Shown one piece after another: positions 2,623 to 13,979 of a stretch of 64,000 nt of DNA. How positions within the stretch are numbered: position 1 is the first letter of the stretch; each line of letters opens with the position of its first letter. Made by a program: the position numbers and the translations under genes. Origin of the DNA: Planctomycetota bacterium (GTDB lineage: Bacteria; Planctomycetota; GCA-002687715; CAIWVZ01). The stretch lies in assembly GCA_044222185.1 (NCBI GenBank), contig JBGANV010000001.1, forward strand, positions 1,952,001-2,016,000, read 5' to 3'. The notes beneath the pieces are model-generated. The model saw nothing but the letters and a program-made list of their open reading frames with translations. It was not told the origin of the DNA and did not search any database.

Positions 2623-3528
2623 GTGCCGCGGAGCATGACAGGCTTCGGCGCGGCCGTTCGCGACGGGGCCGGGCGACGCGTGACGGTCGAAGCCAAGTCT
2701 GTCAACCATCGCTTCCTGAAGTCCCAGTTCCGGCTTCCGCTCGCCCTGCAATCGTTGGAGCCCGACCTCGAGACCGAGGTCCGGACACGGCTGACCCGCG
2801 GGGCGATCACCGTCAGCGTTCACGTGTCCGCGCTGCCAGGGGACACGGGTGCCGCGATCGACGAAGCCCGCGTCCGAGCGAACCACGACGCACTCCTTGC
2901 GATCTACCGGTCGCTCTACCCGGACGCGGCGCCGCCCGAGCCCATGCGGGTCATCGAGGCCGCCCTCCGCCAGCCCGGCGGCACCTCGGCCGCCGACGAG
3001 GCCGAATCGACGACCGACGAGCTACGGGACGTGGCGCGGCGGGCGACGGTCGAGGCCCTGGATGCCCTCACGCGGAGCCGCGATGCGGAGGGCGCGAAGA
3101 CGGCATCCGAACTCCGACTGCACGGTGCACGAGTCGCCACGTTGCGTGCGGCGATCGCCGAACGCTCCCCCCTCGTCACGCGGGAGAATCGGGACCGCTT
3201 CGCCACGCGCGTGAACGCCCTCTTATCCGAGGTGAGACCTGGACTTACGATCGACGACACGGTCTTGATGCGCGAGGCGGCGGCATTTGGAGAGCGGTGC
3301 GACGTCAGCGAGGAACTCCAGCGCCTCGCCGCACACCTGGATCTGTTCAACCGCCTCCTCGACGACGGCGCGGATGTGGGACGGCGTCTCGACTTCCTCC
3401 TGCAGGAGATGCTGCGCGAGGCGAACACGATCGGCTCCAAGGCGAGCGACCTGTCCATCGCCCACTCCGTGGTTGAGGCCAAGGCGGAAATCGACAAGAT
3501 GAAAGAACAGGTCCAGAATCTTGAGTAG
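2623..3528 (+). CDS. yicC: YicC/YloC-family endoribonuclease
   Basis: SMTGFG, KSVNHRFL, DVSEELQRL, GRRLDFLLQEMLREANTIGSK, KEQVQNLE; upstream of gmk. Confidence 0.93.
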   Translation: MPRSMTGFGAAVRDGAGRRVTVEAKSVNHRFLKSQFRLPLALQSLEPDLETEVRTRLTRGAITVSVHVSALPGDTGAAIDEARVRANHDALLAIYRSLYPDAAPPEPMRVIEAALRQPGGTSAADEAESTTDELRDVARRATVEALDALTRSRDAEGAKTASELRLHGARVATLRAAIAERSPLVTRENRDRFATRVNALLSEVRPGLTIDDTVLMREAAAFGERCDVSEELQRLAAHLDLFNRLLDDGADVGRRLDFLLQEMLREANTIGSKASDLSIAHSVVEAKAEIDKMKEQVQNLE

Positions 3529-4111
3529 GCTTCCCGTCCTCGTCCTCAGCGGCCCCAGCGGCGTCGGCAAGAGCTCCGTCATTGCGGAGCTGTTGCGGCA
3601 CGAGCGCTGCCGCCTCGCGGTGTCTGCCGCGACCCGCGCGCCGCGCCCGGGTGAGGTCGACGGGGTGCACTATCGGTTCATGACGCCATCCTCGTTCCAT
3701 GACCTCGTTTCCAGAAATGCCCTCCTCGAACACGCCGAAGTCCACGGTCACTGCTATGGCACGCCCGTGGAGGAGGTCGATCCCTGGGTCGCCAGCGGAT
3801 GGACCGTCCTCCTCGACATCGACGTCCAGGGATATCGAAGCGTCAAACGCCTGCGCCCCAGCACGGTCGGAGTCTTCATCAAGCCGCCGTCGTTCGAGTC
3901 CCTCCGGGATCGCCTGCAGCGCCGCAAGAGCGAGGATGCTGCGGCCATGGAACGGCGCCTCGACCACGCCCGCCGAGAGCTCGCCTTCGCTCACGAATAC
4001 GAACACGTCGTCATCAACGACGACCTTGCCCGCGCGGTTCACGAGATCGAAGCCATCGTCGGCATCGAAGCCCCGTCGGACCCGAACCGCCTGACCTCAA
4101 ACCGCAAGTAA
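3521..4111 (+). CDS. gmk: Guanylate kinase
   Basis: SGPSGVGKS, TRAPRPGEVDGVHYRF, HCYGTP, LDIDVQG. Confidence 0.95.
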   Translation: MSRLPVLVLSGPSGVGKSSVIAELLRHERCRLAVSAATRAPRPGEVDGVHYRFMTPSSFHDLVSRNALLEHAEVHGHCYGTPVEEVDPWVASGWTVLLDIDVQGYRSVKRLRPSTVGVFIKPPSFESLRDRLQRRKSEDAAAMERRLDHARRELAFAHEYEHVVINDDLARAVHEIEAIVGIEAPSDPNRLTSNRK

Positions 4112-4118
4112 CCGAGAC

Positions 4119-4451
4119 ATGATCCACCAACACAAGCTCGACGACCTCTACGGACAAGTCGGCGGCGTCTACAAGACGACCGTCCTGATCCAGAAGCGCC
4201 TGCGCGAGCTCAACCGAGGTGCCCGCCGGCTCGTCCATGAAGAGGACAAGAGCCCCATCGCCACCGTGATGCGCGAGATCGAGGGCAAGAAGCTCGACCT
4301 GCTGGCCGACACCGAGGAGAACCGCGAGCTCATCCGGACCGAGATCGAGCGGATGACGACGGATCAGCCGCGCGCCATCGACGTCGAGCCCACCACGAGC
4401 GAGGACGAACTCGAGCGCCGGATCCTGACGGCCCTGAACAAGACCCGCTGA
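4119..4451 (+). CDS. rpoZ: RNA polymerase omega subunit with C-terminal extension
   Basis: VGGVYKTTVLIQKRLRELNRGARRLV..PIATVMREI; gmk-rpoZ-coaBC synteny. Confidence 0.88.
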   Translation: MIHQHKLDDLYGQVGGVYKTTVLIQKRLRELNRGARRLVHEEDKSPIATVMREIEGKKLDLLADTEENRELIRTEIERMTTDQPRAIDVEPTTSEDELERRILTALNKTR

Positions 4452-4512: not shown

Positions 4513-5061
4513 ATGACCCGCCCCCACGTCCTGCTCGGCGTCACCGCCAGCATCGCCGCCCACCGGGCCCTGGACCTCACGTCCGAGCTCACGAAATCGG
4601 GCATGGACGTCAGCGTCGTGATGACGCGAAACGCCCAGGAATTCGTGCGACCGCTGGCCTTCGAAGCCCTTTCGCGCCGCCCCGTCCGGACCGATTTCTT
4701 CGGCCCGGATCGCGCGCCAGCCCATGAACACATCGACCTGGCCGCGACGGCGAACCTCTGCGTGATCGCCCCGGCGTCCGCGGACGTCATCGCCAAGCTG
4801 GCCCACGGCCTCTGCGACGACCTGCTGACGACCGTGACCTACGCGTATTCCGGCCCCCGCATCGTCTGTCCGGCCATGAACTGGCGCATGTGGCAGAACC
4901 CGCTGACGGCCAGGAATCTGGACACCCTGAAGGGGCTTGGCTTCGACGTCGTCGACCCCGATTCCGGCGACCTCGCCTGCGGCGAGCAGGGCCCGGGCCG
5001 CCTCGCGGCCCTGCCGAGGATTCTCGACCGCATCCGCCTGCACCTCGGGGTCGGCGGATGA
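4513..5061 (+). CDS. coaC: Phosphopantothenoylcysteine decarboxylase (flavoprotein half of CoaBC)
   Basis: LLGVTASIAA, HIDLA, IAPASADVIAKLAHG.CDDLL, PAMN, LACGEQGPGRL. Confidence 0.9.
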   Translation: MTRPHVLLGVTASIAAHRALDLTSELTKSGMDVSVVMTRNAQEFVRPLAFEALSRRPVRTDFFGPDRAPAHEHIDLAATANLCVIAPASADVIAKLAHGLCDDLLTTVTYAYSGPRIVCPAMNWRMWQNPLTARNLDTLKGLGFDVVDPDSGDLACGEQGPGRLAALPRILDRIRLHLGVGG

Positions 5062-5699
5062 ACCTGCTGGTCACCGCCGGGCCGACCCACGAACCCATCG
5101 ACGACGTCCGGTACGTGGGGAATTCGAGTAGCGGGCGACTGGGGTTCCTGATCGCCGAGGTTGCGCGCCACCGGGGTCACGCGGTGACGCTCGTCGCCGG
5201 TCCCTGTGCCCTGGCGGACCCGGCCGGGATCTCCGTGATCCGGGTGACGACGGCGACCGAAATGCTCGCGGCATGTCAGGCGGCGTTCCCGACGGCCGAC
5301 GCACTGGTGATGGCGGCAGCCGTCGCCGACTATCGACCGCGCGACCGCATCGTCGGGAAGATGAAGAAGGGGGCGGACGACCTCGTCCTGCACCTCGTCA
5401 AAAATCCGGACGTCGTCGCCGAACTCGGTAAGATGTCGCGCGGTCAGGTCATCGTGGGGTTTGCCCTCGAGGCCGCTCCGCCTGCGGAGGCGGAAGCGCT
5501 CGCGCGCGGCAAGCTTCGCAACAAGCATCTCGATCTCGTCGTGTTGAACCACCCTGGGTCGCTCGGTGGGTCGGATGCTGTCGGGGTGACTCTCATCACC
5601 GAGCGGGAGGCGGTCTCGCTCGGCAACGTCGACAAGCGTCGACTCGGGGAACGGCTCGTTCGCTTCGTCGAAACGCGCCAGCTCTCCGAGGGTCGTTGA
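5058..5699 (+). CDS. coaB: Phosphopantothenate-cysteine ligase (CoaB half)
   Basis: LVTAGPTHEPIDDVRYVGNSSSGRLG, AAAVADYRP, VGFALE. ATGA overlap with coaC stop. Confidence 0.9.
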   Translation: MNLLVTAGPTHEPIDDVRYVGNSSSGRLGFLIAEVARHRGHAVTLVAGPCALADPAGISVIRVTTATEMLAACQAAFPTADALVMAAAVADYRPRDRIVGKMKKGADDLVLHLVKNPDVVAELGKMSRGQVIVGFALEAAPPAEAEALARGKLRNKHLDLVVLNHPGSLGGSDAVGVTLITEREAVSLGNVDKRRLGERLVRFVETRQLSEGR

Positions 5700-5777: not shown

Positions 5778-6272
5778 ATGGACCAGCCGGTCTCGACGGC
5801 AAGCTGGCAGATCCGGGTCGGCGTCCGCCGTGACCCGTCCGCTGCCGATCTCCCCTACCCTCGATACATGACCGACGGGGCAGCGGGCGCCGACGTCTTC
5901 GCGGCCGTCGAGTCACCGATCACGGTCCGCATGGGCGAGATCCACCGGATCCCCACGGGCCTCTTCCTCGAGATTCCAGAAGGGTTCGAAGCCCAGGTAC
6001 GAGCTCGATCGGGCCTCGCGCTCAAGAGCGGCATCGCGCTCGTGAACGCGCCGGGCACCATCGACTCCGACTATCGCGGCGAGTTGGGCGTGATCCTCAC
6101 GTGCCTCAGCAACACGCCCTGCGTGATCGAGCGCGGCATGCGGATCGCACAGCTCGTCTTCACGCGCGTCGCCCGCGCCGAGTTCATCGCTACGGACGCC
6201 ATCGGCACCACCGTTCGCGGCTCGGGGGGATTCGGACACACGGGCCTTGGTTCGGAAGCGAGTCGAAAGTGA
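5778..6272 (+). CDS. dut: dUTP diphosphatase
   Basis: AAGAD, RSGLA, NAPGTIDSDYRGE, RIAQL, RGSGGFGHTG. Confidence 0.96.
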   Translation: MDQPVSTASWQIRVGVRRDPSAADLPYPRYMTDGAAGADVFAAVESPITVRMGEIHRIPTGLFLEIPEGFEAQVRARSGLALKSGIALVNAPGTIDSDYRGELGVILTCLSNTPCVIERGMRIAQLVFTRVARAEFIATDAIGTTVRGSGGFGHTGLGSEASRK

Positions 6273-9088
6273 ACGAACGTGCAGTGACGACGCGTGCGAC
6301 GACACCCCCGATCTCCCGCATCGTGTGGGCGTGGGCGTTGGTTCTCCTCGCCATCTACGTGGCGATCAGTTTCACCACCTACGTCCCGCCCGGGCTGGGG
6401 AACGGTGAACCGCTGACGAACGTCGGAGGCCGGCTCGGTCAGCGACTGGGCCAGGCGCTCGTCGAAGGCTTCGGGGTCGGAGCGTTCGGGCTCCCCTTCT
6501 TCCTCGTGTTCCTCGGTTGGCGGCTGCGCACGCGCCCCCGCGTGACCGAGCCACTGCTCAAAGTGCTCGGCGTGTTCATGCTCATGCTCGCGTTCGGGCT
6601 CGTCATGACGCTCGCAGCGCCGGGCCGCGTCTTCCCGCGGGGTTACGTCCCGATCGGCGGGATTCTCGGCGACTGGCTCGGGACGAAACTGGTGCTGCAC
6701 TTCGGGAGGTGGTGGAGCGTGGCGATCGCCGGGCTCGGTGCCGGCGCGGCGCTGATCCTCTCGACCGACAGTTTCTTCCTCGAAGGCCTTGCGAGATGGT
6801 TGTCGCGCCACCCCACGCCGAAGACGGCGGAGGCCAAGGTCGCGGCCCGCAAACGGGCAGCGCGCGAGTTGGAGCGGACCGTGTCGCCGCTCGCGACGGA
6901 TGAAGAACCGGTCGAAGACGAGACCCCGATCGAAGCTCGCGACGCGGCAATGGCGGAAGGCGCAGCCGATGGCGCCTCATCGACGGAAGATGGGGCTGCA
7001 CCGCCGATCGAGGCCGCGCGGCCTCCGCGAGCCTCGCGCTCGAAGAAGGCCCCCGAGCGCCGGCTGCTCGAGACGCTGGCGAAGACCGAGTCGGCGGAGT
7101 CGGACACCTTCGACGTACCCAAGCCCAAGATCAAGGACGGGGTGGCGCCTGCAGTCGCCGCTGCGGCCGCCGCGCCGACGTTGTCGGAGGCCAGACCCAA
7201 GGCCGAGCAACGTGCCGAGGACGACGCCCCCGCCGGTGACGACGACGCGCCGGCGCCACGCGTACGACGGCCTCGCGCCTCGTCGCGCAAGAAGCCGGCC
7301 GATGCGCCCGTACCCGACCTCGGGCTCGACCTCGACGACGGCGACGATCACGAGGTCGATGCGCTCGACGGGTTCGACGACGTCGAAGCCGAGGGTGATG
7401 ACGAAGACGACGCCGAGGCCCCGGCCGCCGCGCCGGCCGCGCGCGCCAAGCCGCCAGTGCCGCCAAGCCAGGTGCGGATCCGCGACGGCGTCCCCGCGGG
7501 CAAACCGGGCGACGCCACGGGCGTGACGGTGATCAACCTCTCCCGCGACCCCAAGCTCAAGGGCAAGGAGAAGTACGAGCTGCCGCCGTTGACGCTGCTC
7601 AACGCCGCCGTCTACTCGGGAGAACGCGAGAGCGACGAGGCGCTCCAGGAGAAGGCCCGCCAGCTGGTCCAGGCGCTTCAGGACTTCGGTGTCCAGGCGA
7701 CGGTCGAGGAGATCGAGCGCGGTCCCGTCATCACGCGGTTCGACCTGAATCTCGCGCGCGGCACGAAGATCTCCCGGGTCACCGGGTTGGCCGAGGACCT
7801 CGGCATGACCCTCGGCGTGGGGCGAGTCCGCATCGCACAGGTGAAGGGGAAGGCCGCACTCGGAGTGGAGATCCCGAACCGTTCGCGCGAGACGGTGTTC
7901 CTGAAGGAACTGGCGCTCGCTGCCGCCACGGCCGCACCGAACAAGAAGATCGCGATCCCGCTGTTCCTCGGAAAGGACAGCGCCGGCAACCCGATCATCG
8001 AAGACCTGGCGTCGACGCCGCACCTCCTGATCGCCGGCCGCACCGGCGCGGGCAAGTCGGTGTTCGTCAACTCCCTCGTCCTGTCGATCCTGCTCACCCG
8101 CTACCCGGAAGAGGTGCGGCTGATCATGATCGATCCCAAGCGCGTCGAGCTCGAGGTCTACCAGGACATCCCACACCTCCTCACGCGCGTCGAAAGCGAC
8201 CCCAAGAAGTCGTCCCTGATCCTCCAATGGGCGATCCAGCAGATGGAGGAGCGATACGAGCTCCTCTCGGCCGTCGGCGTGCGCCACATCACGAGCTTCA
8301 ACAAGCTCGGCAAGGAAGCGCGCAAGGAGATGCTGAGCAAGCTCTACTCGGAGGGCGAGATCGAGAAGGTCCCGGAGACCATGCCCTACATCGTCATCAT
8401 CGTCGACGAGCTCGCCGACCTCATGATGACGTCCGGCAAGGAAACCGAGCAGGCGATCGCGCGTCTCGCCCAGAAGGCGCGAGCCGTCGGCATCCACGTC
8501 GTCCTCGCGACCCAGCGTCCGAGCACCGACGTCATCACGGGCCTCATCAAGAGCAACCTGCCGTCGCGCATCGCGTTCCAGACCCGCACGGGGATCGACT
8601 CGCGCACGATCCTCGACCGGCAGGGCGCCGAGAAGCTTCTCGACAAGGGCGACATGCTCTTCCTCGCGGCTTCCGCAGGTGACGATCTGCGCCGCATCCA
8701 GGGTCCCTTCGTCTCGGACGAGGAAGTGACGCGAGTCGTCGACTACCTGAAGACGAGTGCGCTGCCGCAGTACACGCACTCCCTCATCCAGGTCGGCGCG
8801 GGCGAGATGAAGGAGAGCGACGCGGGCGAGCAGGACGAGCTGTTCGAACAAGCCGTCGAGATCGTCCTCCAGAGCAAGCAGGCCAGCACGTCGTGGCTGC
8901 AACGTCAGTTGAGCGTTGGTTACGCGCGCGCCGGACGCCTCGTCGACCTGATGACGCAGGCCGGATACATCTCGGGTCCGAACGGCAGCAAGCCGCGCGA
9001 GATCCTGATCACGATCGACCAGTGGAATGAACTGAAGGGGAAGACGGCCGCAGCGTCGGCTTCCGAAGGATCGGAAGGTGCGAGGTGA
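6269..9088 (+). CDS. ftsK: DNA translocase FtsK (TM domain, linker, motor, gamma)
   Basis: N-terminal TMs; PHLLIAGRTGAGKS, IDPKRVEL, IIVDELADLMM, RLAQKARAVGIH..ATQRPS; gamma LQRQLSVGYARAGRLVD. GTG start overlaps dut stop. Confidence 0.96.
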   Translation: MNERAVTTRATTPPISRIVWAWALVLLAIYVAISFTTYVPPGLGNGEPLTNVGGRLGQRLGQALVEGFGVGAFGLPFFLVFLGWRLRTRPRVTEPLLKVLGVFMLMLAFGLVMTLAAPGRVFPRGYVPIGGILGDWLGTKLVLHFGRWWSVAIAGLGAGAALILSTDSFFLEGLARWLSRHPTPKTAEAKVAARKRAARELERTVSPLATDEEPVEDETPIEARDAAMAEGAADGASSTEDGAAPPIEAARPPRASRSKKAPERRLLETLAKTESAESDTFDVPKPKIKDGVAPAVAAAAAAPTLSEARPKAEQRAEDDAPAGDDDAPAPRVRRPRASSRKKPADAPVPDLGLDLDDGDDHEVDALDGFDDVEAEGDDEDDAEAPAAAPAARAKPPVPPSQVRIRDGVPAGKPGDATGVTVINLSRDPKLKGKEKYELPPLTLLNAAVYSGERESDEALQEKARQLVQALQDFGVQATVEEIERGPVITRFDLNLARGTKISRVTGLAEDLGMTLGVGRVRIAQVKGKAALGVEIPNRSRETVFLKELALAAATAAPNKKIAIPLFLGKDSAGNPIIEDLASTPHLLIAGRTGAGKSVFVNSLVLSILLTRYPEEVRLIMIDPKRVELEVYQDIPHLLTRVESDPKKSSLILQWAIQQMEERYELLSAVGVRHITSFNKLGKEARKEMLSKLYSEGEIEKVPETMPYIVIIVDELADLMMTSGKETEQAIARLAQKARAVGIHVVLATQRPSTDVITGLIKSNLPSRIAFQTRTGIDSRTILDRQGAEKLLDKGDMLFLAASAGDDLRRIQGPFVSDEEVTRVVDYLKTSALPQYTHSLIQVGAGEMKESDAGEQDELFEQAVEIVLQSKQASTSWLQRQLSVGYARAGRLVDLMTQAGYISGPNGSKPREILITIDQWNELKGKTAAASASEGSEGAR

Positions 9089-11403
9089 CGACGATGATCG
9101 AGAACTCCCATCAGAACAGCTACCCGTCCGCGGTCCGCCTCGGCGTGCCGCTCCTCGTCTTCTTCGGAACGGTGTTCCTCATCGTCGCCGCCGTGAAGTT
9201 CCACGTCGTCGGCGCGATCCACAGTGACTTCGTGCTCGCGCGGCCCATGGGGATGCCCGTGACGTGCGCGTTGCTCGGCGTCGCCGCGTTCGTCGCAGCC
9301 CGGTGGTTCTTCGGCAAACCCACACAGGCGCTCTCGAAGAAGCTTCTCGCGACGCTCGTCGTCCTGCTGCCGCTCATGGGCCTCTTCGGCGTGATCGAGG
9401 GCGCGGCCAGCGACGCGGCGAAGCCGCTCGGCGGCACGCTCGGAGGTCTTCTCGCGCGGGCGTTCCTCGGAATGGGGCCGATGCTGGCGGGAGCGGTCTT
9501 CGCGCTCCTCGCGCTCTTCGGCGCGTTTCTCGCGCAGCGGATCCTCGTGCAGGCGCCGACTCTCGCCATCGATCCCTACACCCTTCTGCGCCGGGCGCAG
9601 GTCAAGAGCCCGGCGTCGACGGCTGCAGCGGCGCCGACGCACACCGGTGACGAAGGGATCTCGGAGGTCCGTACGGTTCCCGGCGGCGGCGAGCTGTTCT
9701 CCGAGGCGACGGAACTGGCGGCACCGCCGGAAGATCTCGTCACGGAAGCGGGCGACGTCGCCGTCGCAGAAGCGGACGTCGAATCGGACGCGGGCGAGAT
9801 GGAAGCCGTCGAGCCTTTCCACGTCCCGGACGACGAGCCACCTCCGCCGCCGCGGCGGATCCCGATCCTCGCCGGAGTCGTCGACGAGCCGAGCGACGAT
9901 CTCGTCGAAGAGGATGAAGAGATCGAGCCCCCGGCTCGGCGGCCGACGTCGGCCGACCTGTTCTCGTCCGTGATCGCGCACGAGGCCACGGAGGTTGCCG
10001 CCCAGTCGATCACGCTGGACGACGACGAAGACCTGGAGACGGTCGACGCGCCGGCGGCTTCCACGGAAGAGGAGGCCCACGCGGATGCGTCGGAACCCTT
10101 TCGCGCCGAGATTCCGATTGCACGCGAACTGACCGCAGAGCAAGCCGAGGCCACCAAGCCGATCGAACTCGCCGAGCTCATCGAGGCGGCGTCCGCTCCG
10201 TCGGAGGGCACCGTCGCAGTCCACCAGCCGGACCTCTTCGGAGCAGGCATCTGGTCGACGCCGACCGTGGCCGCCGACCCCCACGACGACGAGCCCCTCG
10301 GAACCGCGGTCGTCGAAACCACCGCGTCCGGCGCCGACGATTCGTCCGTCGCGGTGGCGACGAGCACGGCCGGTGCCGTCCTCGACTCCGCGCCGACGTT
10401 CCAGCCCGGCGCGGCGCACGGCGATCCGGAAGACGCGGTCGAGGAGATCGACGAGACGCCATCCGACGTCTGGTCCGAGTCGGAGCCAGAGCCCGAGTTC
10501 GTCGAGGTCGACCACGACGAGGCGCTCGTCGCAGAGTTGCTCGCCGACGACGAGCCGGCGACCGACGTCGCGGCGAACTCTGCCGTGGAGGACGAGCCGA
10601 CCGAACAGTCCGCCGCCCGCGAGCCCGTGATCACGGCCGGCCACGCCGAGGCGGAGACGACCGTGTCGCCGACGGCTGCCGTCGACGCGCCGGCGCCGGC
10701 CGAAGACCTGTCGCCCGTGATGTCCGAAGGCGTCGCGATCGAGCCGGAGTCGTCGACGGCCGCGGCAGCGTCCTCGGAGGCGTCCGACCCGGGGCCGGAC
10801 ACCGCACCGAAGGCGGCCCGCCGCTCCCAGCCCCGCAAGCGCCGCGCGCACGTCGCCGACGAGGACACGACGCCACTGTTCGCCGAGCCGGAACTGCCCC
10901 CCGAGCCCGTGCAGGATGCGGAGCCGGCGGGGGGTGACGCCGCCCTCGCGCCCCAGCTCGTCGACGGCCCGGCAAGCACCGCGGCAGCTCCACCCCGTAC
11001 GACGCGCAAGCGCCGGACGGAGACGGACGAGTGGGCGCAGTGGGACGAGGGCCGAGCGAAGCCCGCCAAGCGTGCGGCGAAAGCGCCCGCGCCCTCGCCG
11101 ATCGAAACGCCCGCCAGCGCGGCCTCGACGGAGGCCGCCCGCCACCGAGCCGGTGAGCGCCCGCTCTTCGAAGGCGCCGACGACCCCAACCCCGATCTCC
11201 TGCAGCGGGCGATCGCCCTCGTCATCGAGGAGGATCGCTGCTCGGTCTCCATGCTCCAGCGGTCCCTCGGCGTCACGTTCGGCGAAGCCACGTCGCTGAT
11301 CGACCGGATGTTCCAGCAGGGCGTCGTCGGGCCCTACCAACCCACCGGCCGGCGCGAGGTTCTCGCGCGCAAGACGCCGCAGGAACAGACAGCCGAATCC
11401 TGA
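9085..11403 (+). CDS. Membrane protein with long acidic low-complexity linker and C-terminal FtsK-gamma-like winged helix; no ATPase motor
   Basis: About 4 TM helices in the first ~155 aa, then E/D/A/P-rich region, then DLLQRAIALVIEEDRCSVSMLQRSLGVTFGEATSLIDRMFQQGVVGP..GRREVL, which aligns with the gamma domain of the upstream FtsK. Confidence 0.82.
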   Translation: MTTMIENSHQNSYPSAVRLGVPLLVFFGTVFLIVAAVKFHVVGAIHSDFVLARPMGMPVTCALLGVAAFVAARWFFGKPTQALSKKLLATLVVLLPLMGLFGVIEGAASDAAKPLGGTLGGLLARAFLGMGPMLAGAVFALLALFGAFLAQRILVQAPTLAIDPYTLLRRAQVKSPASTAAAAPTHTGDEGISEVRTVPGGGELFSEATELAAPPEDLVTEAGDVAVAEADVESDAGEMEAVEPFHVPDDEPPPPPRRIPILAGVVDEPSDDLVEEDEEIEPPARRPTSADLFSSVIAHEATEVAAQSITLDDDEDLETVDAPAASTEEEAHADASEPFRAEIPIARELTAEQAEATKPIELAELIEAASAPSEGTVAVHQPDLFGAGIWSTPTVAADPHDDEPLGTAVVETTASGADDSSVAVATSTAGAVLDSAPTFQPGAAHGDPEDAVEEIDETPSDVWSESEPEPEFVEVDHDEALVAELLADDEPATDVAANSAVEDEPTEQSAAREPVITAGHAEAETTVSPTAAVDAPAPAEDLSPVMSEGVAIEPESSTAAAASSEASDPGPDTAPKAARRSQPRKRRAHVADEDTTPLFAEPELPPEPVQDAEPAGGDAALAPQLVDGPASTAAAPPRTTRKRRTETDEWAQWDEGRAKPAKRAAKAPAPSPIETPASAASTEAARHRAGERPLFEGADDPNPDLLQRAIALVIEEDRCSVSMLQRSLGVTFGEATSLIDRMFQQGVVGPYQPTGRREVLARKTPQEQTAES

Positions 11404-11536
11404 ACGCGGACGCTCGTCCGGTCCGACACGGGCGCAGGTCGATGATCTGCGCCCGCCGCCGTTTCGCGGGTCGCGGGCCCCGGTTATGTTCCCGCTTCAA
11501 CTCTGCGAAGCCCTCGCGAGCTCAGCCGAACCAAAC

Positions 11537-12919
11537 GTGACCCCGCGCCGCATCGTCTCCCTCGTCTCGCTCGGATGCCCGAAGAACCTCGTGGACAGCG
11601 AGGGTCTGGTCTCGGCGCTCCTGTCGAACGACTTCCGCCTGGTGACGGATCCGAAGGACTCGGAGGTCGTCATCGTGAACACCTGCGGCTTCCTCGACGC
11701 CTCGCGTCAGGAGTCTCTGGCGCAGATTCGCGACGTGTGCCAGCTGAAGAAGACCAACCAGGTGCGCGGCGTCCTCGTCGCCGGGTGCATGGTGGGCAAC
11801 TACCGGGAGCTGCTCGCGACGGAGGCGCCGGACGTCGACGGACTCGTCGGGTTCGGAGACTATCCGCGCATCGCCCAGATCGTGGAAGGCCTGCTGCCGC
11901 GTTCGGAGGCACCCACGTTCACGATCGAGCGCCGACGCGTCGAGGCGTCTCTCACGCCGAGGCACTACGCCTACCTGAAGATCTCCGAGGGCTGTAATCA
12001 CGTCTGCACCTTCTGCGTGATCCCGAGCATCCGTGGCCCCATGCGATCGCTGCCGATCGAGGACCTCGTGGGCCGCGCGCGGGCCCAGGCGGAGCGAGGG
12101 GTCCGCGAGCTGAACCTCATCGCGCAGGATTCGACGGTCTACGGGGGCGACATCTACGGTGAGGTGCGGCTCGAACGCCTCATTTCCCGGCTCGCGCAGA
12201 TCGACGGAATCGCGTGGATCCGCCTCATGTACGCGTACCCGACGGAAGTGCGGGACGCCCTGATCGACCTCCTCGGGAGCGGAGGGGCGGTCCTCCCCTA
12301 CCTCGACGTGCCCATCCAGCATGCGGCCACCGGCGTCCTCGCCCGCATGAAGCGAGGCTACGATCGTCGCACGCTCGATCGGATGGTCGACAAACTCCGA
12401 GCCAGGGGCGTCGCGATTCGCACGACCGTCATCGTGGGATTCCCGGGCGAGACTGCCGCGGACTTCGAGGAACTCCTGCAATTCCTGCGGGACGCGCGCT
12501 TCGATCGGCTGGGCGCATTCCGTTATTCCCGCGAGGAAGGGAGCGCCGCCGCCGACCTCGACGGCCAGGTGCCCGAGCCGGAGAAAGACGAGCGCTGGAA
12601 CCGTCTGATGGCGCTTCAGCAGGAGATCGCGTTCGCGAACGCCCGAGCCCGGATCGGTACCGTCGAGGACGTCCTGATCGACGTCCCCGCGGCCGATGGA
12701 CGACCGGCACGCGGCCGTACCCGCTGGGACGCCCCCGAGGTCGACGCGTCGGTCTTCGTCGAAGGCGACGGCCTCGCGGCCGGAAACATCGTCCCCGTGC
12801 ACGTGGCCGAAGCGCGGGGCTATGATCTCGCCGGACGCGCCAACCCCACCTCCGCGCTTCGAGGAGGCGATGCAGGTGGAACGAGCGAACGGATCCGCCG
12901 CGCACGACCAGGAAGCTGA
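11537..12919 (+). CDS. rimO: Ribosomal protein S12 methylthiotransferase RimO
   Basis: SLGCPKNLVDSE, VNTCGF, KISEGCNHVCTFCVIP, WIRLMYAYP, C-terminal TRAM with APEVD. Start may be 11486. Confidence 0.92.
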   Translation: MTPRRIVSLVSLGCPKNLVDSEGLVSALLSNDFRLVTDPKDSEVVIVNTCGFLDASRQESLAQIRDVCQLKKTNQVRGVLVAGCMVGNYRELLATEAPDVDGLVGFGDYPRIAQIVEGLLPRSEAPTFTIERRRVEASLTPRHYAYLKISEGCNHVCTFCVIPSIRGPMRSLPIEDLVGRARAQAERGVRELNLIAQDSTVYGGDIYGEVRLERLISRLAQIDGIAWIRLMYAYPTEVRDALIDLLGSGGAVLPYLDVPIQHAATGVLARMKRGYDRRTLDRMVDKLRARGVAIRTTVIVGFPGETAADFEELLQFLRDARFDRLGAFRYSREEGSAAADLDGQVPEPEKDERWNRLMALQQEIAFANARARIGTVEDVLIDVPAADGRPARGRTRWDAPEVDASVFVEGDGLAAGNIVPVHVAEARGYDLAGRANPTSALRGGDAGGTSERIRRARPGS

Positions 12920-13516
12920 TTGAACACGAACTGGTTCAACCTCCCCAACCGCATCACGCTCGCAAGGCTCCTTGCAAGCATCGTGCTCTTCGCGATCCTC
13001 GTTCAGCTCAACCGCCGCGGCACTGCGTCCTCGAGCCTGGCGCTCTGGGCCCTCATCCTCTTCATCCTCGTCGCCGCCACGGACTGGCTCGACGGGTATC
13101 TCGCACGAAGCCTGGGCCAGGTGACCGCTCTCGGCCGAATCCTCGACCCGTTCGTCGACAAGGTCACCGTCTGCGGGTCGTTCATCCTTCTGGGCGACGT
13201 CGCGCCGATCGATCACCTGCTCCAAGCGTGGATGATCGTCGTGATCGTCGGGCGGGAGTTCTTCGTGAACGACATCCGCGGATACATGGAATCGCGCGGG
13301 GTCTCGTTCGGTGCGGCGGCTCCGGGCAAGATCAAGATGCTCGTCCAATGCATCACCGTGGGCTTCCTCATCGGCCGCGTGGCGTTCGGGAACCTGCTCG
13401 GGATCCTGGACCAGGTGAACATCGGCCTCTTGTGGGCGACGCTCTTCGCGACCGTCGCGTCCGGCGTCTATTACCTCGGCAAGGGTGCAGCACTCCTGCG
13501 CGCGGCCGAGTCCTGA
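12920..13516 (+). CDS. pgsA: CDP-diacylglycerol--glycerol-3-phosphate 3-phosphatidyltransferase
   Basis: NLPNRITLAR, TDWLDGYLAR..VTALGRILDPFVDK, GKIKM. TTG start. Confidence 0.92.
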   Translation: MNTNWFNLPNRITLARLLASIVLFAILVQLNRRGTASSSLALWALILFILVAATDWLDGYLARSLGQVTALGRILDPFVDKVTVCGSFILLGDVAPIDHLLQAWMIVVIVGREFFVNDIRGYMESRGVSFGAAAPGKIKMLVQCITVGFLIGRVAFGNLLGILDQVNIGLLWATLFATVASGVYYLGKGAALLRAAES

Positions 13517-13523
13517 GCCGCTG

Positions 13524-13979
13524 GTGATCGCCCGCGCGCTCGCGACGTTCGGCGGTGTCGGACGCTTCCCCAGGGCGCCGGGAACGGCGGCGAGCGTCGT
13601 CGCGGCCGCCGTCCTCCTCGTCCCAGTGAGCCCGGGCGTCTACCCGTGGGCGGTCGGAATCGCCGCCGTCGTCTCCTTCGTTGCCTGCGTGATCGTCGCC
13701 CGCGTTCTCTTCCGCGGCGCCGTCCGGGAGGAGGACCCGGGGTGGTTCGTCCTGGACGAAGCCTGCGGCGTGTGGATCGCCGCGTGGCGGCCCGCCGGGA
13801 TCAGCCCCTGGTCCCTCCTCCTCGCGACGGCCCTGTTCCGCCTCTTCGACATCTGGAAACCGTTCCCGATCCGCCAGCTCCAAGACCTGCCGTACGGGTT
13901 GGGGATCGTCGTCGACGACGCCGTCGCCGGCCTTTTTGCCCTGGGGATCAGCCTTTGCGTCGAGCGATGGCTCGTCTAA
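13524..13979 (+). CDS. pgpA: Phosphatidylglycerophosphatase A
   Basis: APGTAAS, DPGWFVLDEACG, LFRLFDIWKPFPI, GIVVDDAVAG. Start approximate. Confidence 0.9.
   Translation: MIARALATFGGVGRFPRAPGTAASVVAAAVLLVPVSPGVYPWAVGIAAVVSFVACVIVARVLFRGAVREEDPGWFVLDEACGVWIAAWRPAGISPWSLLLATALFRLFDIWKPFPIRQLQDLPYGLGIVVDDAVAGLFALGISLCVERWLV

Follow-up and report, generated by a model that had tools for sequence, protein, structure and literature searches.

Translocases of the FtsK/SpoIIIE family, among them the FtsK proteins of Escherichia coli and Pseudomonas aeruginosa, combine a four-helix transmembrane (4TM) anchor, a long disordered linker, an alpha/beta motor with Walker motifs, and a C-terminal gamma domain that reads FtsK-orienting polar sequences (KOPS) in DNA and activates the recombinase XerD. 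Here we describe a protein that shares the linker and the gamma domain with this family and, to judge from profile-profile comparison, the anchor, and that differs from it in having neither the alpha/beta motor nor the Walker motifs. Its gene immediately follows a complete ftsK within a 64,000 bp stretch, hereafter the window, of the genome of a Planctomycetota bacterium (assembly GCA_044222185.1, contig JBGANV010000001.1, positions 1,952,001 to 2,016,000 of the forward strand), and we refer to it as the paralog.

The nearest functional precedents are largely artificial. Passages of Grainge 2011 (PMC3130261) report that gamma supplied in the laboratory without a translocase can activate XerD, and that isolated gamma activates XerCD-dif with topologically complex products. 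Parts of Keller 2016 (PMC5052618), which also deals with gamma constructs, state that the residues contacting XerD all lie within the set that contacts DNA, and that one gamma domain cannot do both simultaneously. In the sections available of Sivanathan 2009 (PMC2680272), an E. coli FtsK carrying the triple change R1300A, E1303A, E1306A is KOPS-blind and still supports Xer recombination. The paralog resembles a natural version of both the gamma constructs and the KOPS-blind mutant; unlike the constructs it is membrane-anchored, conserved and mounted on a 550 residue acidic tether, and the contact residues on the XerD side differ. Excerpts of PMC6744903 and PMC9226527 describe XafT, of the Vibrio TLC-phi satellite phage, as an FtsK-independent XerD activation factor. 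XafT is a precedent for a small non-motor protein taking over XerD activation. It is said to be an unrelated small phage protein, neither membrane-anchored nor FtsK-derived. In Streptomyces, the small membrane protein SmeA is reportedly encoded beside an FtsK-like translocase, SffA, which it is said to target to septa; the paralog is likewise a membrane partner co-encoded with an FtsK-family pump, whereas SmeA is reportedly small, not FtsK-derived and without a gamma domain. The first-pass annotation of the window knew of no description of such a pairing, and we too found none, either of a natural motor-less FtsK paralog or of its pairing with ftsK, in the literature searched, which mostly left aside subscription journals, so that absence from print is unproven. 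Within that literature the pairing is new.

Absence of the motor was consistent in every search. The paralog matches neither FtsK_alpha, FtsK_SpoIIIE, AAA nor any P-loop family in Pfam (E ≤ 1), and it matches no NCBIfam family at all. Among 16 paralogs scanned, none matches FtsK_SpoIIIE (E ≤ 0.1) and all match FtsK_gamma. Because the motor is absent, the paralog is not counted among the FtsK/SpoIIIE DNA translocases; judged by its sequence it cannot translocate DNA, and it is best described as an FtsK derivative retaining two accessory modules. The architecture proposed in the first-pass annotation, namely about four transmembrane (TM) helices, an acidic linker and a C-terminal gamma-like winged helix without Walker A or B, is borne out by hydropathy, by linker composition, by a Pfam gamma score of 62.3 bits and by the lack of P-loop matches. 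Nor did we meet what that annotation had itself named as evidence to the contrary (no gamma match, or relatives with a full motor or no gene at this place), a motor being present in 0 of the 16 paralogs.

The N-terminal anchor comprises four predicted TM segments, at residues 19-37, 54-72, 87-105 and 132-150. Its score against FtsK_4TM (PF13491) is 14.3 bits, under the cut-off of 23.1, and three of 16 orthologs match that family at E ≤ 0.1, one of them (L030, 48.9 bits) above the cut-off. In profile-profile comparison, hhalign of the TM profile of all paralogs against that of FtsK gives a probability of 95% (E 3.6e-8, 143 columns), with reversed controls at 0.5-1.5%. Anchor glycines G56, G116, G117 and G120 are invariant. 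Together these comparisons suggest that the paralog anchor is homologous to the 4TM anchor of FtsK.

Between anchor and gamma domain lies a linker of about 510-550 residues, in which residues 180-690 include 116 D/E against 28 K/R, far more acidic than the linker of the neighbouring FtsK (55:38). The tether carries a net charge of about -88, its acidity is conserved among orthologs, its sequence changes rapidly, and it is disordered in an AlphaFold2 (AF2) model, for which the last 135 residues were modelled. Three short motifs stand out within it. In a G-x-L-F-x-x-x-x-E-L motif the L, F and E are invariant in all eight close relatives, as is the pattern P..R.P.L.G.V of a proline/arginine motif, found too in L015 and L027. 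The third, before the gamma domain, combines a basic patch, the sequence W-A-x-W-[DE]-E and, after it, R-P; eight of its residues (R638, R641, W647, A648, W650, E652, P657 and R660 in the 769 residue numbering) are invariant in the same eight relatives. Its region is disordered in the model. A scan for this W..W-acidic motif recovered it from 10 of 19 paralog sequences, two of which are fragments, and some of the others have near variants; of 100 motor-bearing FtsK open reading frames (ORFs), two contain it. A fourth candidate, a Q-x-x-L-F motif before gamma that resembles a beta-clamp-binding sequence, was dropped when found to be missing from the seven closest relatives and from family f2.

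The gamma domain itself is unmistakable. It scores 62.3 bits against FtsK_gamma (PF09397; cut-off 30.6) and matches 2ve8 at 1.1e-7 in a phmmer search of the PDB. In the AF2 model, fragment residues 66-122 form a helix-helix-helix-strand-strand fold with block-mean pLDDT (predicted local distance difference test) values of 84-96, and the best Foldseek matches are the solved E. coli and P. aeruginosa gamma structures 2j5p, 2j5o, 2ve8 and 2ve9 (TM-score 0.81-0.90, root-mean-square deviation (rmsd) 1.0-2.3 Å, 33-38% identity). The gamma match and structural likeness for which the first-pass annotation had proposed a check are therefore both present. The fold also resembles a winged helix in the chromatin-binding region of Schistosoma mansoni Hop1, a HORMA protein (PDB 9mug; sequence E 0.002, 32% identity over the fold, rmsd 1.8 Å).

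Where the domain departs from FtsK is its recognition surface. Positions were numbered by alignment to PDB chains, with the register set by the E. coli peptide 1289-1297 (RQFRIGYNR) given in PMC5052618, and residues were tabulated for 20 FtsK and 19 paralog gammas; the DNA-contact residues were taken solely from the mutant data in PMC2680272 and a statement in PMC5052618. The recognition helix reads GYARAGRL in the adjacent FtsK, GYNRAARI in E. coli (2j5p_A) and TFGEATSL in the paralog, just as the first-pass annotation had it, and the whole of positions 1288-1306 is Q-R-S-L-G-V-T-F-G-E-A-T-S-L-I-D-R-M-F. Thus T-F-G-E-A-T-S replaces G-Y-x-R-A-x-R, and S, D and F stand at the equivalents of R1300, E1303 and E1306, so that the canonical KOPS-reading residue set is absent from the window paralog by this sequence test. 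The same holds widely: G1294 is kept in 20/20 FtsK gammas and 2/19 paralogs, an R or K at 1297 in 20/20 and 1/19, and an R or K at 1300 in 18/20 and 5/19. All 19 paralogs have instead an aromatic residue at 1295 and an acid at 1303 (FtsK uncounted at both). Upstream of the helix, unlike in FtsK, an invariant Cys directly precedes the kept L-Q-R in same-order paralogs. The statement of the first-pass annotation that basic residues are replaced thus stands for the recognition helix and fails one step upstream, where the equivalent of R1289, critical for XerD in E. coli, is kept. This altered surface is not degenerate: VTFGEAT, together with almost the entire gamma domain, is invariant in all eight close relatives, although over their full length these are only 36-39% identical to the window protein.

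Gene and position are conserved well beyond the window. Gamma is matched exactly twice in the source genome (7.08 Mb, 93.8% complete), each time at the ftsK-paralog locus. Of 22 genomes sampled from the same order, 16 have a pair of gamma matches separated by 2-3 kb on the same contig and strand, three have the pair on two short contigs, two have a single match and one has none. Twenty loci were taken for comparison. The paralog frame is present in 19 and unbroken in 17, and each of the 17 unbroken frames encodes four TM segments, then a middle rich in acidic residues (79-259 D/E against 12-35 K/R), and ends in gamma. Orthologs lie directly downstream of ftsK, with the frame opening before, or at most about 75 nt after, the ftsK stop in all 16 loci that have both genes. 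For the closest pair (L014/L017, dS 0.36) the ratio of non-synonymous to synonymous substitution rates (dN/dS) is 0.07 in the TM part, 0.27 in the linker and 0.05 in gamma; all other pairs are saturated (dS above 1) and were left unused. These values show strong purifying selection on the folded parts of the paralog, and with the tandem arrangement in 16/22 genomes they answer the proposed test of synteny and dN/dS in favor of a maintained gene. In two independent activated-sludge studies, short contigs match both genes at about 99% identity, and a single one, corresponding to 8976-9395, bridges the junction. Against the window these strain variants show 18 synonymous and two non-synonymous changes in ftsK, and three synonymous and four non-synonymous changes in the paralog, the latter four all within the linker (residues 578-679). 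Near-identical DNA to window positions 8300-10300 occurs in bioreactor and activated-sludge metagenomes of several studies.

A wider sample of 301 Planctomycetota genomes (at least 85% complete) was surveyed for second gamma matches, a count that does not equate to verified paralogs. Within the window's order 15 of 18 genomes have two or more matches, as do 68 of the 283 genomes outside it, with clustering by family (f8 8/8, f25 6/6, f28 10/11, f56 7/7) and a single match in every sampled genome of other families (e.g. f7 16/16). A spot check of 10 of the 68 located the second gamma directly downstream of ftsK in five, on separate small contigs in two, elsewhere in the genome in two, and as a weak match with an internal stop in one. 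The seven second-gamma ORFs that were read all lack Walker A and have at least three N-terminal TM segments, and six are acid-rich. No second gamma was found beside ftsK (flanks up to 4 kb) at 80 FtsK loci, retrieved with the FtsK motor as query at 42-48% identity, which span many phyla and take in about eight Planctomycetota metagenome-assembled genomes. Homologs were sought with the gamma region, given that a whole-protein search was dominated by low-complexity words (5 matches). Seven close metagenome relatives share 73-80% identity in gamma and match PF09397 only, after which the score drops from 88 bits to 45, the level at which true FtsKs set in; databases name these relatives 'hypothetical protein' and, once, 'FtsK/SpoIIIE-like'. 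Three ESM Atlas clusters (70, 54 and 65 members), with Planctomycetota as the commonest source, are likewise labeled 'hypothetical protein' with FtsK_gamma as sole family. A profile search of 1.84 billion cluster representatives returned 98 proteins at E ≤ 1e-30; these representatives stand for 50%-identity clusters, and among the 150 with the best scores at least 50 align over their whole length.

Motor-less gamma proteins of a second kind, soluble rather than membrane-anchored, also exist. In G035 (L032, G035:C69, 3690-4658) ftsK is followed by ORFs of ~140 residues, each with two gamma-like repeats and no TM segment, and the representative search lists many proteins of 145-260 residues with two or three gamma stretches. 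These uncharacterised proteins, sometimes encoded directly downstream of ftsK, share with the paralog a gamma domain without a motor; unlike it, they have neither a TM anchor nor a long linker.

The gene order coaB-dut-ftsK-paralog-rimO-pgsA(-pgpA) is kept across the window's order and in other families, and ftsK-rimO-pgsA without the paralog is found at several Clostridia loci and one Planctomycetota locus. The paralog stands precisely where ftsK and rimO used to meet, the place predicted for a tandem ftsK duplicate; evidently, to judge from gene order, it arose by tandem duplication of ftsK inside an ftsK-rimO-pgsA cluster, with the downstream copy losing its alpha/beta ATPase. In a gamma tree (79 domains, 86 columns) the 17 same-order paralog gammas form one group, separated from every FtsK gamma by a branch with 96% support in the Shimodaira-Hasegawa-like approximate likelihood ratio test (SH-aLRT), and no paralog falls beside its own genome's FtsK, which marks the duplication as old. 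The short 86-column alignment allows a single origin of all paralogs in the phylum. L030, from another family, keeps the canonical G-Y-A-R-A helix and looks like a less diverged, or younger, form of the paralog.

The residues through which gamma meets XerD tell a more mixed story. Table 1 of PMC5052618 lists Q1288, R1289, R1292, I1293, G1294 and N1296 as contacting XerD; in that table and section 5 of the same source, R1289 is salt-bridged to XerD E184, and no other gamma residue lowers recombination as much when mutated. The window paralog keeps Q and R and has V for I1293, with R1292, G1294 and N1296 replaced by G, T and G. The Q1288-R1289 equivalents are kept in 16/19 paralogs, and in 72/72 FtsK gammas from single-gamma loci matching the pattern, after 8 of 80 rows were dropped as pattern mismatches. 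In four genomes (L019, L021, L022, L025) the gamma of FtsK itself reads (I/L)-Q-T-R, with T at the R1289 position, and the paralog keeps R; in L014, L016 and L017 the pattern is reversed, FtsK having the R1289 equivalent and the paralog not. No genome lacks it in both proteins (20 FtsK and 19 paralog gammas). On the recombinase side, the window's genome encodes two XerC/D-like proteins, which reach 303 and 293 bits with the XerD model and so stay below its equivalog cut-off. Of 23 genomes searched at E ≤ 1e-40, 18 have two matches of this kind and the remaining 5 have one. In three genomes of genus g2 (G001:C72, G003:C7, G004:C213) the best XerD-like match contains one in-frame TAG. When the paralog gamma was co-folded with the better XerD candidate, represented by its C-terminal domain, the score was 0.01 (mark 0.32), which counts neither for nor against binding.

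We tentatively favor the explanation, to which we give slightly less than an even chance, that the paralog serves the FtsK machinery as an accessory subunit without a motor, and that its gamma head binds protein rather than KOPS DNA, with XerD as prime candidate. Through the homologous anchor it would come to lie beside FtsK at the site of division, within the cytoplasmic membrane, and there act as an adaptor or accessory in segregating chromosomes or dividing the cell. Loss of the basic KOPS-reading residues together with retention of Q-R leads us to infer protein binding rather than DNA binding, and the fixed new surface of the head would then serve a protein partner. XerD is the best candidate because isolated gamma activates XerCD-dif without a motor, which would also account for the retention of such a module beside the translocase. 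Handling of XerD would thereby be uncoupled from the reading of KOPS, two tasks that compete for one gamma surface in E. coli. Taken by itself, the involvement of XerD is doubtful in our estimation, and a physical partnership with FtsK, or activation of XerD, is suggested by synteny, shared anchor ancestry and residue patterns only. The complementary distribution of R1289 hints weakly at a division of labour between the two proteins; the hint is weak because it amounts to about two evolutionary events.

This assessment must be tempered by that small number of events and by several further observations that run against it. Homology of the anchor becomes moderate when same-order paralogs alone are used (hhalign probability 60%, E 8.7e-5). 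Equivalents of R1292 and N1296 are missing from the paralog and from the organism's own FtsK alike, and the g2 paralogs (L014, L016, L017) have A or S at the R1289 position, so that the function, if the same family-wide, must be independent of that arginine. The residues E183-E184-Y187-W188, with which E. coli XerD contacts gamma, correspond to E-P-D-A in one of the two Xer proteins of this genome and S-H-A-A in the other, and these positions vary across the order; an E. coli-type interface between gamma and XerD therefore cannot simply be assumed. Nor is loss of DNA binding clear-cut: the two arginines of the GRREVL wing leave some DNA contact possible, the gamma core averages a net charge of +0.7 in FtsK and -1.2 in paralogs, a modest difference that is too small to decide the matter, and outside the order some paralogs (G055, G083) keep R at 1297 and 1300, so DNA-blindness is not universal.

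Other explanations have to be set beside this one. An unlikely alternative is a division scaffold, in which the paralog has taken over or shares the non-DNA divisome role of the FtsK N-terminal domain and linker, its tether motifs recruiting division or envelope proteins and its gamma docking, for example on FtsK, without a role related to Xer. Homology of the anchor to FtsK_N fits such a role, as do linker motifs that are invariant among relatives and rare in true FtsKs (2/100), and the paralog stays with the phospholipid genes of rimO-pgsA-pgpA even where it is apart from ftsK, in G189 (L127, L129), whose cluster is split between ftsK (with gmk-coaC-coaB) and paralog (with rimO-pgsA-pgpA). 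The parts available of PMC12283558 moreover describe ftsK as the only essential gene of the dcw (division and cell wall) cluster in Planctopirus limnophila. Yet FtsK retains its own 4TM anchor and linker in every paralog-bearing genome, so nothing has obviously been handed over, and the strongest constraint falls on gamma rather than on the linker; many FtsZ-less planctomycete families, besides, showed a single gamma match. Another alternative is a membrane-chromosome tether, whose remodelled helix would read a different DNA motif or shape and anchor a chromosomal region such as the terminus near FtsK. The winged-helix fold is intact and closest to the DNA-bound gamma (2ve9, TM-score 0.89-0.90), the altered helix is invariant, the wing arginines are kept, and some distant paralogs keep R at 1297 and 1300. 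We nevertheless consider a DNA tether quite unlikely, given same-order paralogs that have lost G1294, R1297 and mostly R1300, a tether whose net charge should repel DNA, and a gamma core that is neutral to negative.

The paralog could also be a negative regulator or decoy, mixing with FtsK through the anchor, or titrating XerD or the DNA-binding surfaces of FtsK through gamma and a DNA-like acidic tether, so that motor or recombination is held until the right time. Co-expression with FtsK and the conserved, extreme acidity of the tether are compatible with this idea, and passages of PMC3130261 indicate that gamma activation free of translocase gives complex products that would impair chromosome unlinking, which a cell may need to control. 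Nothing specific favors inhibition over activation, however, and several conserved linker motifs are not obviously needed by a decoy; we regard it as improbable. That the paralog is a decaying duplicate, a mis-called ORF or a misassembly seems to us extremely improbable. High-GC genomes do yield long spurious frames, several of which overlap in the window, and two orthologs have broken frames. One of these (L020, G009:C8) is interrupted by a 100-N scaffold gap, and the other (L029, G022:C817) by a single in-frame stop near locus coordinates 6245-6247 that splits a TM-linker part (809 residue open frame) from a gamma part (101 residues); an error in sequencing, a gene in two pieces and a pseudogene are all possible causes. 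Set against this are an architecture and position conserved across the order and beyond, the low dN/dS of the folded parts (0.05-0.07), end-to-end alignment of at least 50 of the best 150 cluster representatives, and the contig from an independent study that spans the junction.

The surroundings of the pair are summarized in Table 1. The locus is a run of housekeeping genes on the + strand of the window, identified by Pfam as gmk, rpoZ, coaC, coaB, dut, ftsK, the paralog, a rimO/miaB-type gene, pgsA and pgpA. FtsK itself is a complete translocase (FtsK_4TM 55, FtsK_alpha 92.6, FtsK_SpoIIIE 204 and FtsK_gamma 94.2 bits in Pfam; PRK10263 at 2.5e-131 in NCBIfam), and the dut stop overlaps its candidate GTG start at 6269 as GTGA. 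The junction with the paralog reads ...GCG AGG TGA, and the GTGA overlap with the ftsK stop noted in the first-pass annotation holds if the GTG at 9085 is the start; the public gene call begins instead at ATG 9094, 6 nt past the ftsK stop (769 residues). Spacing of this kind is typical of translational coupling, and the paralog is therefore probably co-encoded with FtsK in the same operon and translationally coupled to it. Transcript data were limited to one RNA run, with a single 239-nt contig inside the ftsK motor region. Upstream, CoaC (Flavoprotein, 4513-5061) and CoaB (DFP, 4890-5699) occupy two overlapping frames, not one coaBC ORF, and represent either two genes or a frameshift. Downstream, the order ftsK-rimO(MiaB-like)-pgsA(-pgpA) (window 11486-13979; also loci L037, L047, L049, L051, L052, L057 and L085) is common to Planctomycetota and Clostridia, an unusually deep conservation of adjacency between a DNA pump and phospholipid genes.

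Table 1. Coordinates of the ftsK-paralog pair, parts of the paralog and neighbouring genes (positions in the window; residues numbered in the paralog).
Feature	Position	Strand	Basis
gmk	3521-4111	+	Pfam
rpoZ	4119-4451	+	Pfam
dut	5778-6272	+	Pfam
ftsK, full translocase (4TM, linker, alpha, beta motor, gamma)	6269..9088	+	Pfam, NCBIfam; open frame begins 6101
Motor-less FtsK paralog, coding sequence	9085..11403	+	ORF 772 aa from GTG; 769 aa from ATG 9094
N-terminal membrane anchor, four predicted TM helices (aa 19-150)	9139..9534	+	hydropathy, hhalign
Acidic Ala/Pro-rich disordered linker (aa ~180-690)	9622..11154	+	composition, AF2 model
Motif G-x-L-F-x-x-x-x-E-L (aa 202-211)	9688..9717	+	L, F, E invariant in 8/8 close relatives
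Proline/arginine motif PPPPPRRIPILAGVVDE (aa 252-268)	9838..9888	+	P..R.P.L.G.V invariant in 8/8 close relatives
Basic patch and tryptophan-acidic motif WAQWDE (aa 641-663)	11005..11073	+	invariant residues in 8/8 close relatives
FtsK gamma winged-helix domain (aa 704-761)	11194..11367	+	Pfam, AF2, Foldseek
Kept L-Q-R upstream of recognition helix	11254-11262	+	alignment to PDB gamma chains
Remodelled alpha2-alpha3 loop and recognition helix GVTFGEATSLIDRM (E. coli 1292-1305 equivalent)	11269..11310	+	alignment to PDB gamma chains
RimO/MiaB-type methylthiotransferase	11486-12919	+	Pfam

The biological setting is a cell without FtsZ. According to portions of PMC12283558 the whole phylum lacks it, and a search of the window genome, as the first-pass annotation had advised, gave no match to PF00091, with the control positive in 13 of 14 known genomes. 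The FtsZ-less setting proposed in that annotation therefore stands for this genome; a link between the paralog and FtsZ loss finds no such support, as the lack is phylum-wide and a second gamma match is present in only about a quarter of sampled genomes. The paralog is nonetheless a new candidate component of an FtsZ-less division machinery, being a membrane protein derived from FtsK that is conserved, strongly constrained and, across a considerable share of the phylum, probably expressed together with FtsK. It is also a natural experiment, in which the motor has been split from gamma and the reading of DNA apparently from contact with protein, so that the conflict between KOPS binding and XerD activation proposed in the parts available of PMC5052618 becomes testable in a natural system. 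The three conserved tether motifs offer handles for finding partners. A more ambitious version, which we rate as unlikely, is that this and several other planctomycete lineages have a two-protein FtsK system, in which duplication allowed two conflicting tasks of one gamma surface to be shared out. The gamma of FtsK would read DNA polarity, and a DNA-blind gamma, held by a long acidic leash that repels DNA, would either activate or control XerD or engage a new division partner through the W-acidic and proline/arginine motifs. If that were true, the partner would be a missing core component that ties the resolution of chromosomes to the fission of the membrane in cells that lack FtsZ and in which FtsK has a central part in division.

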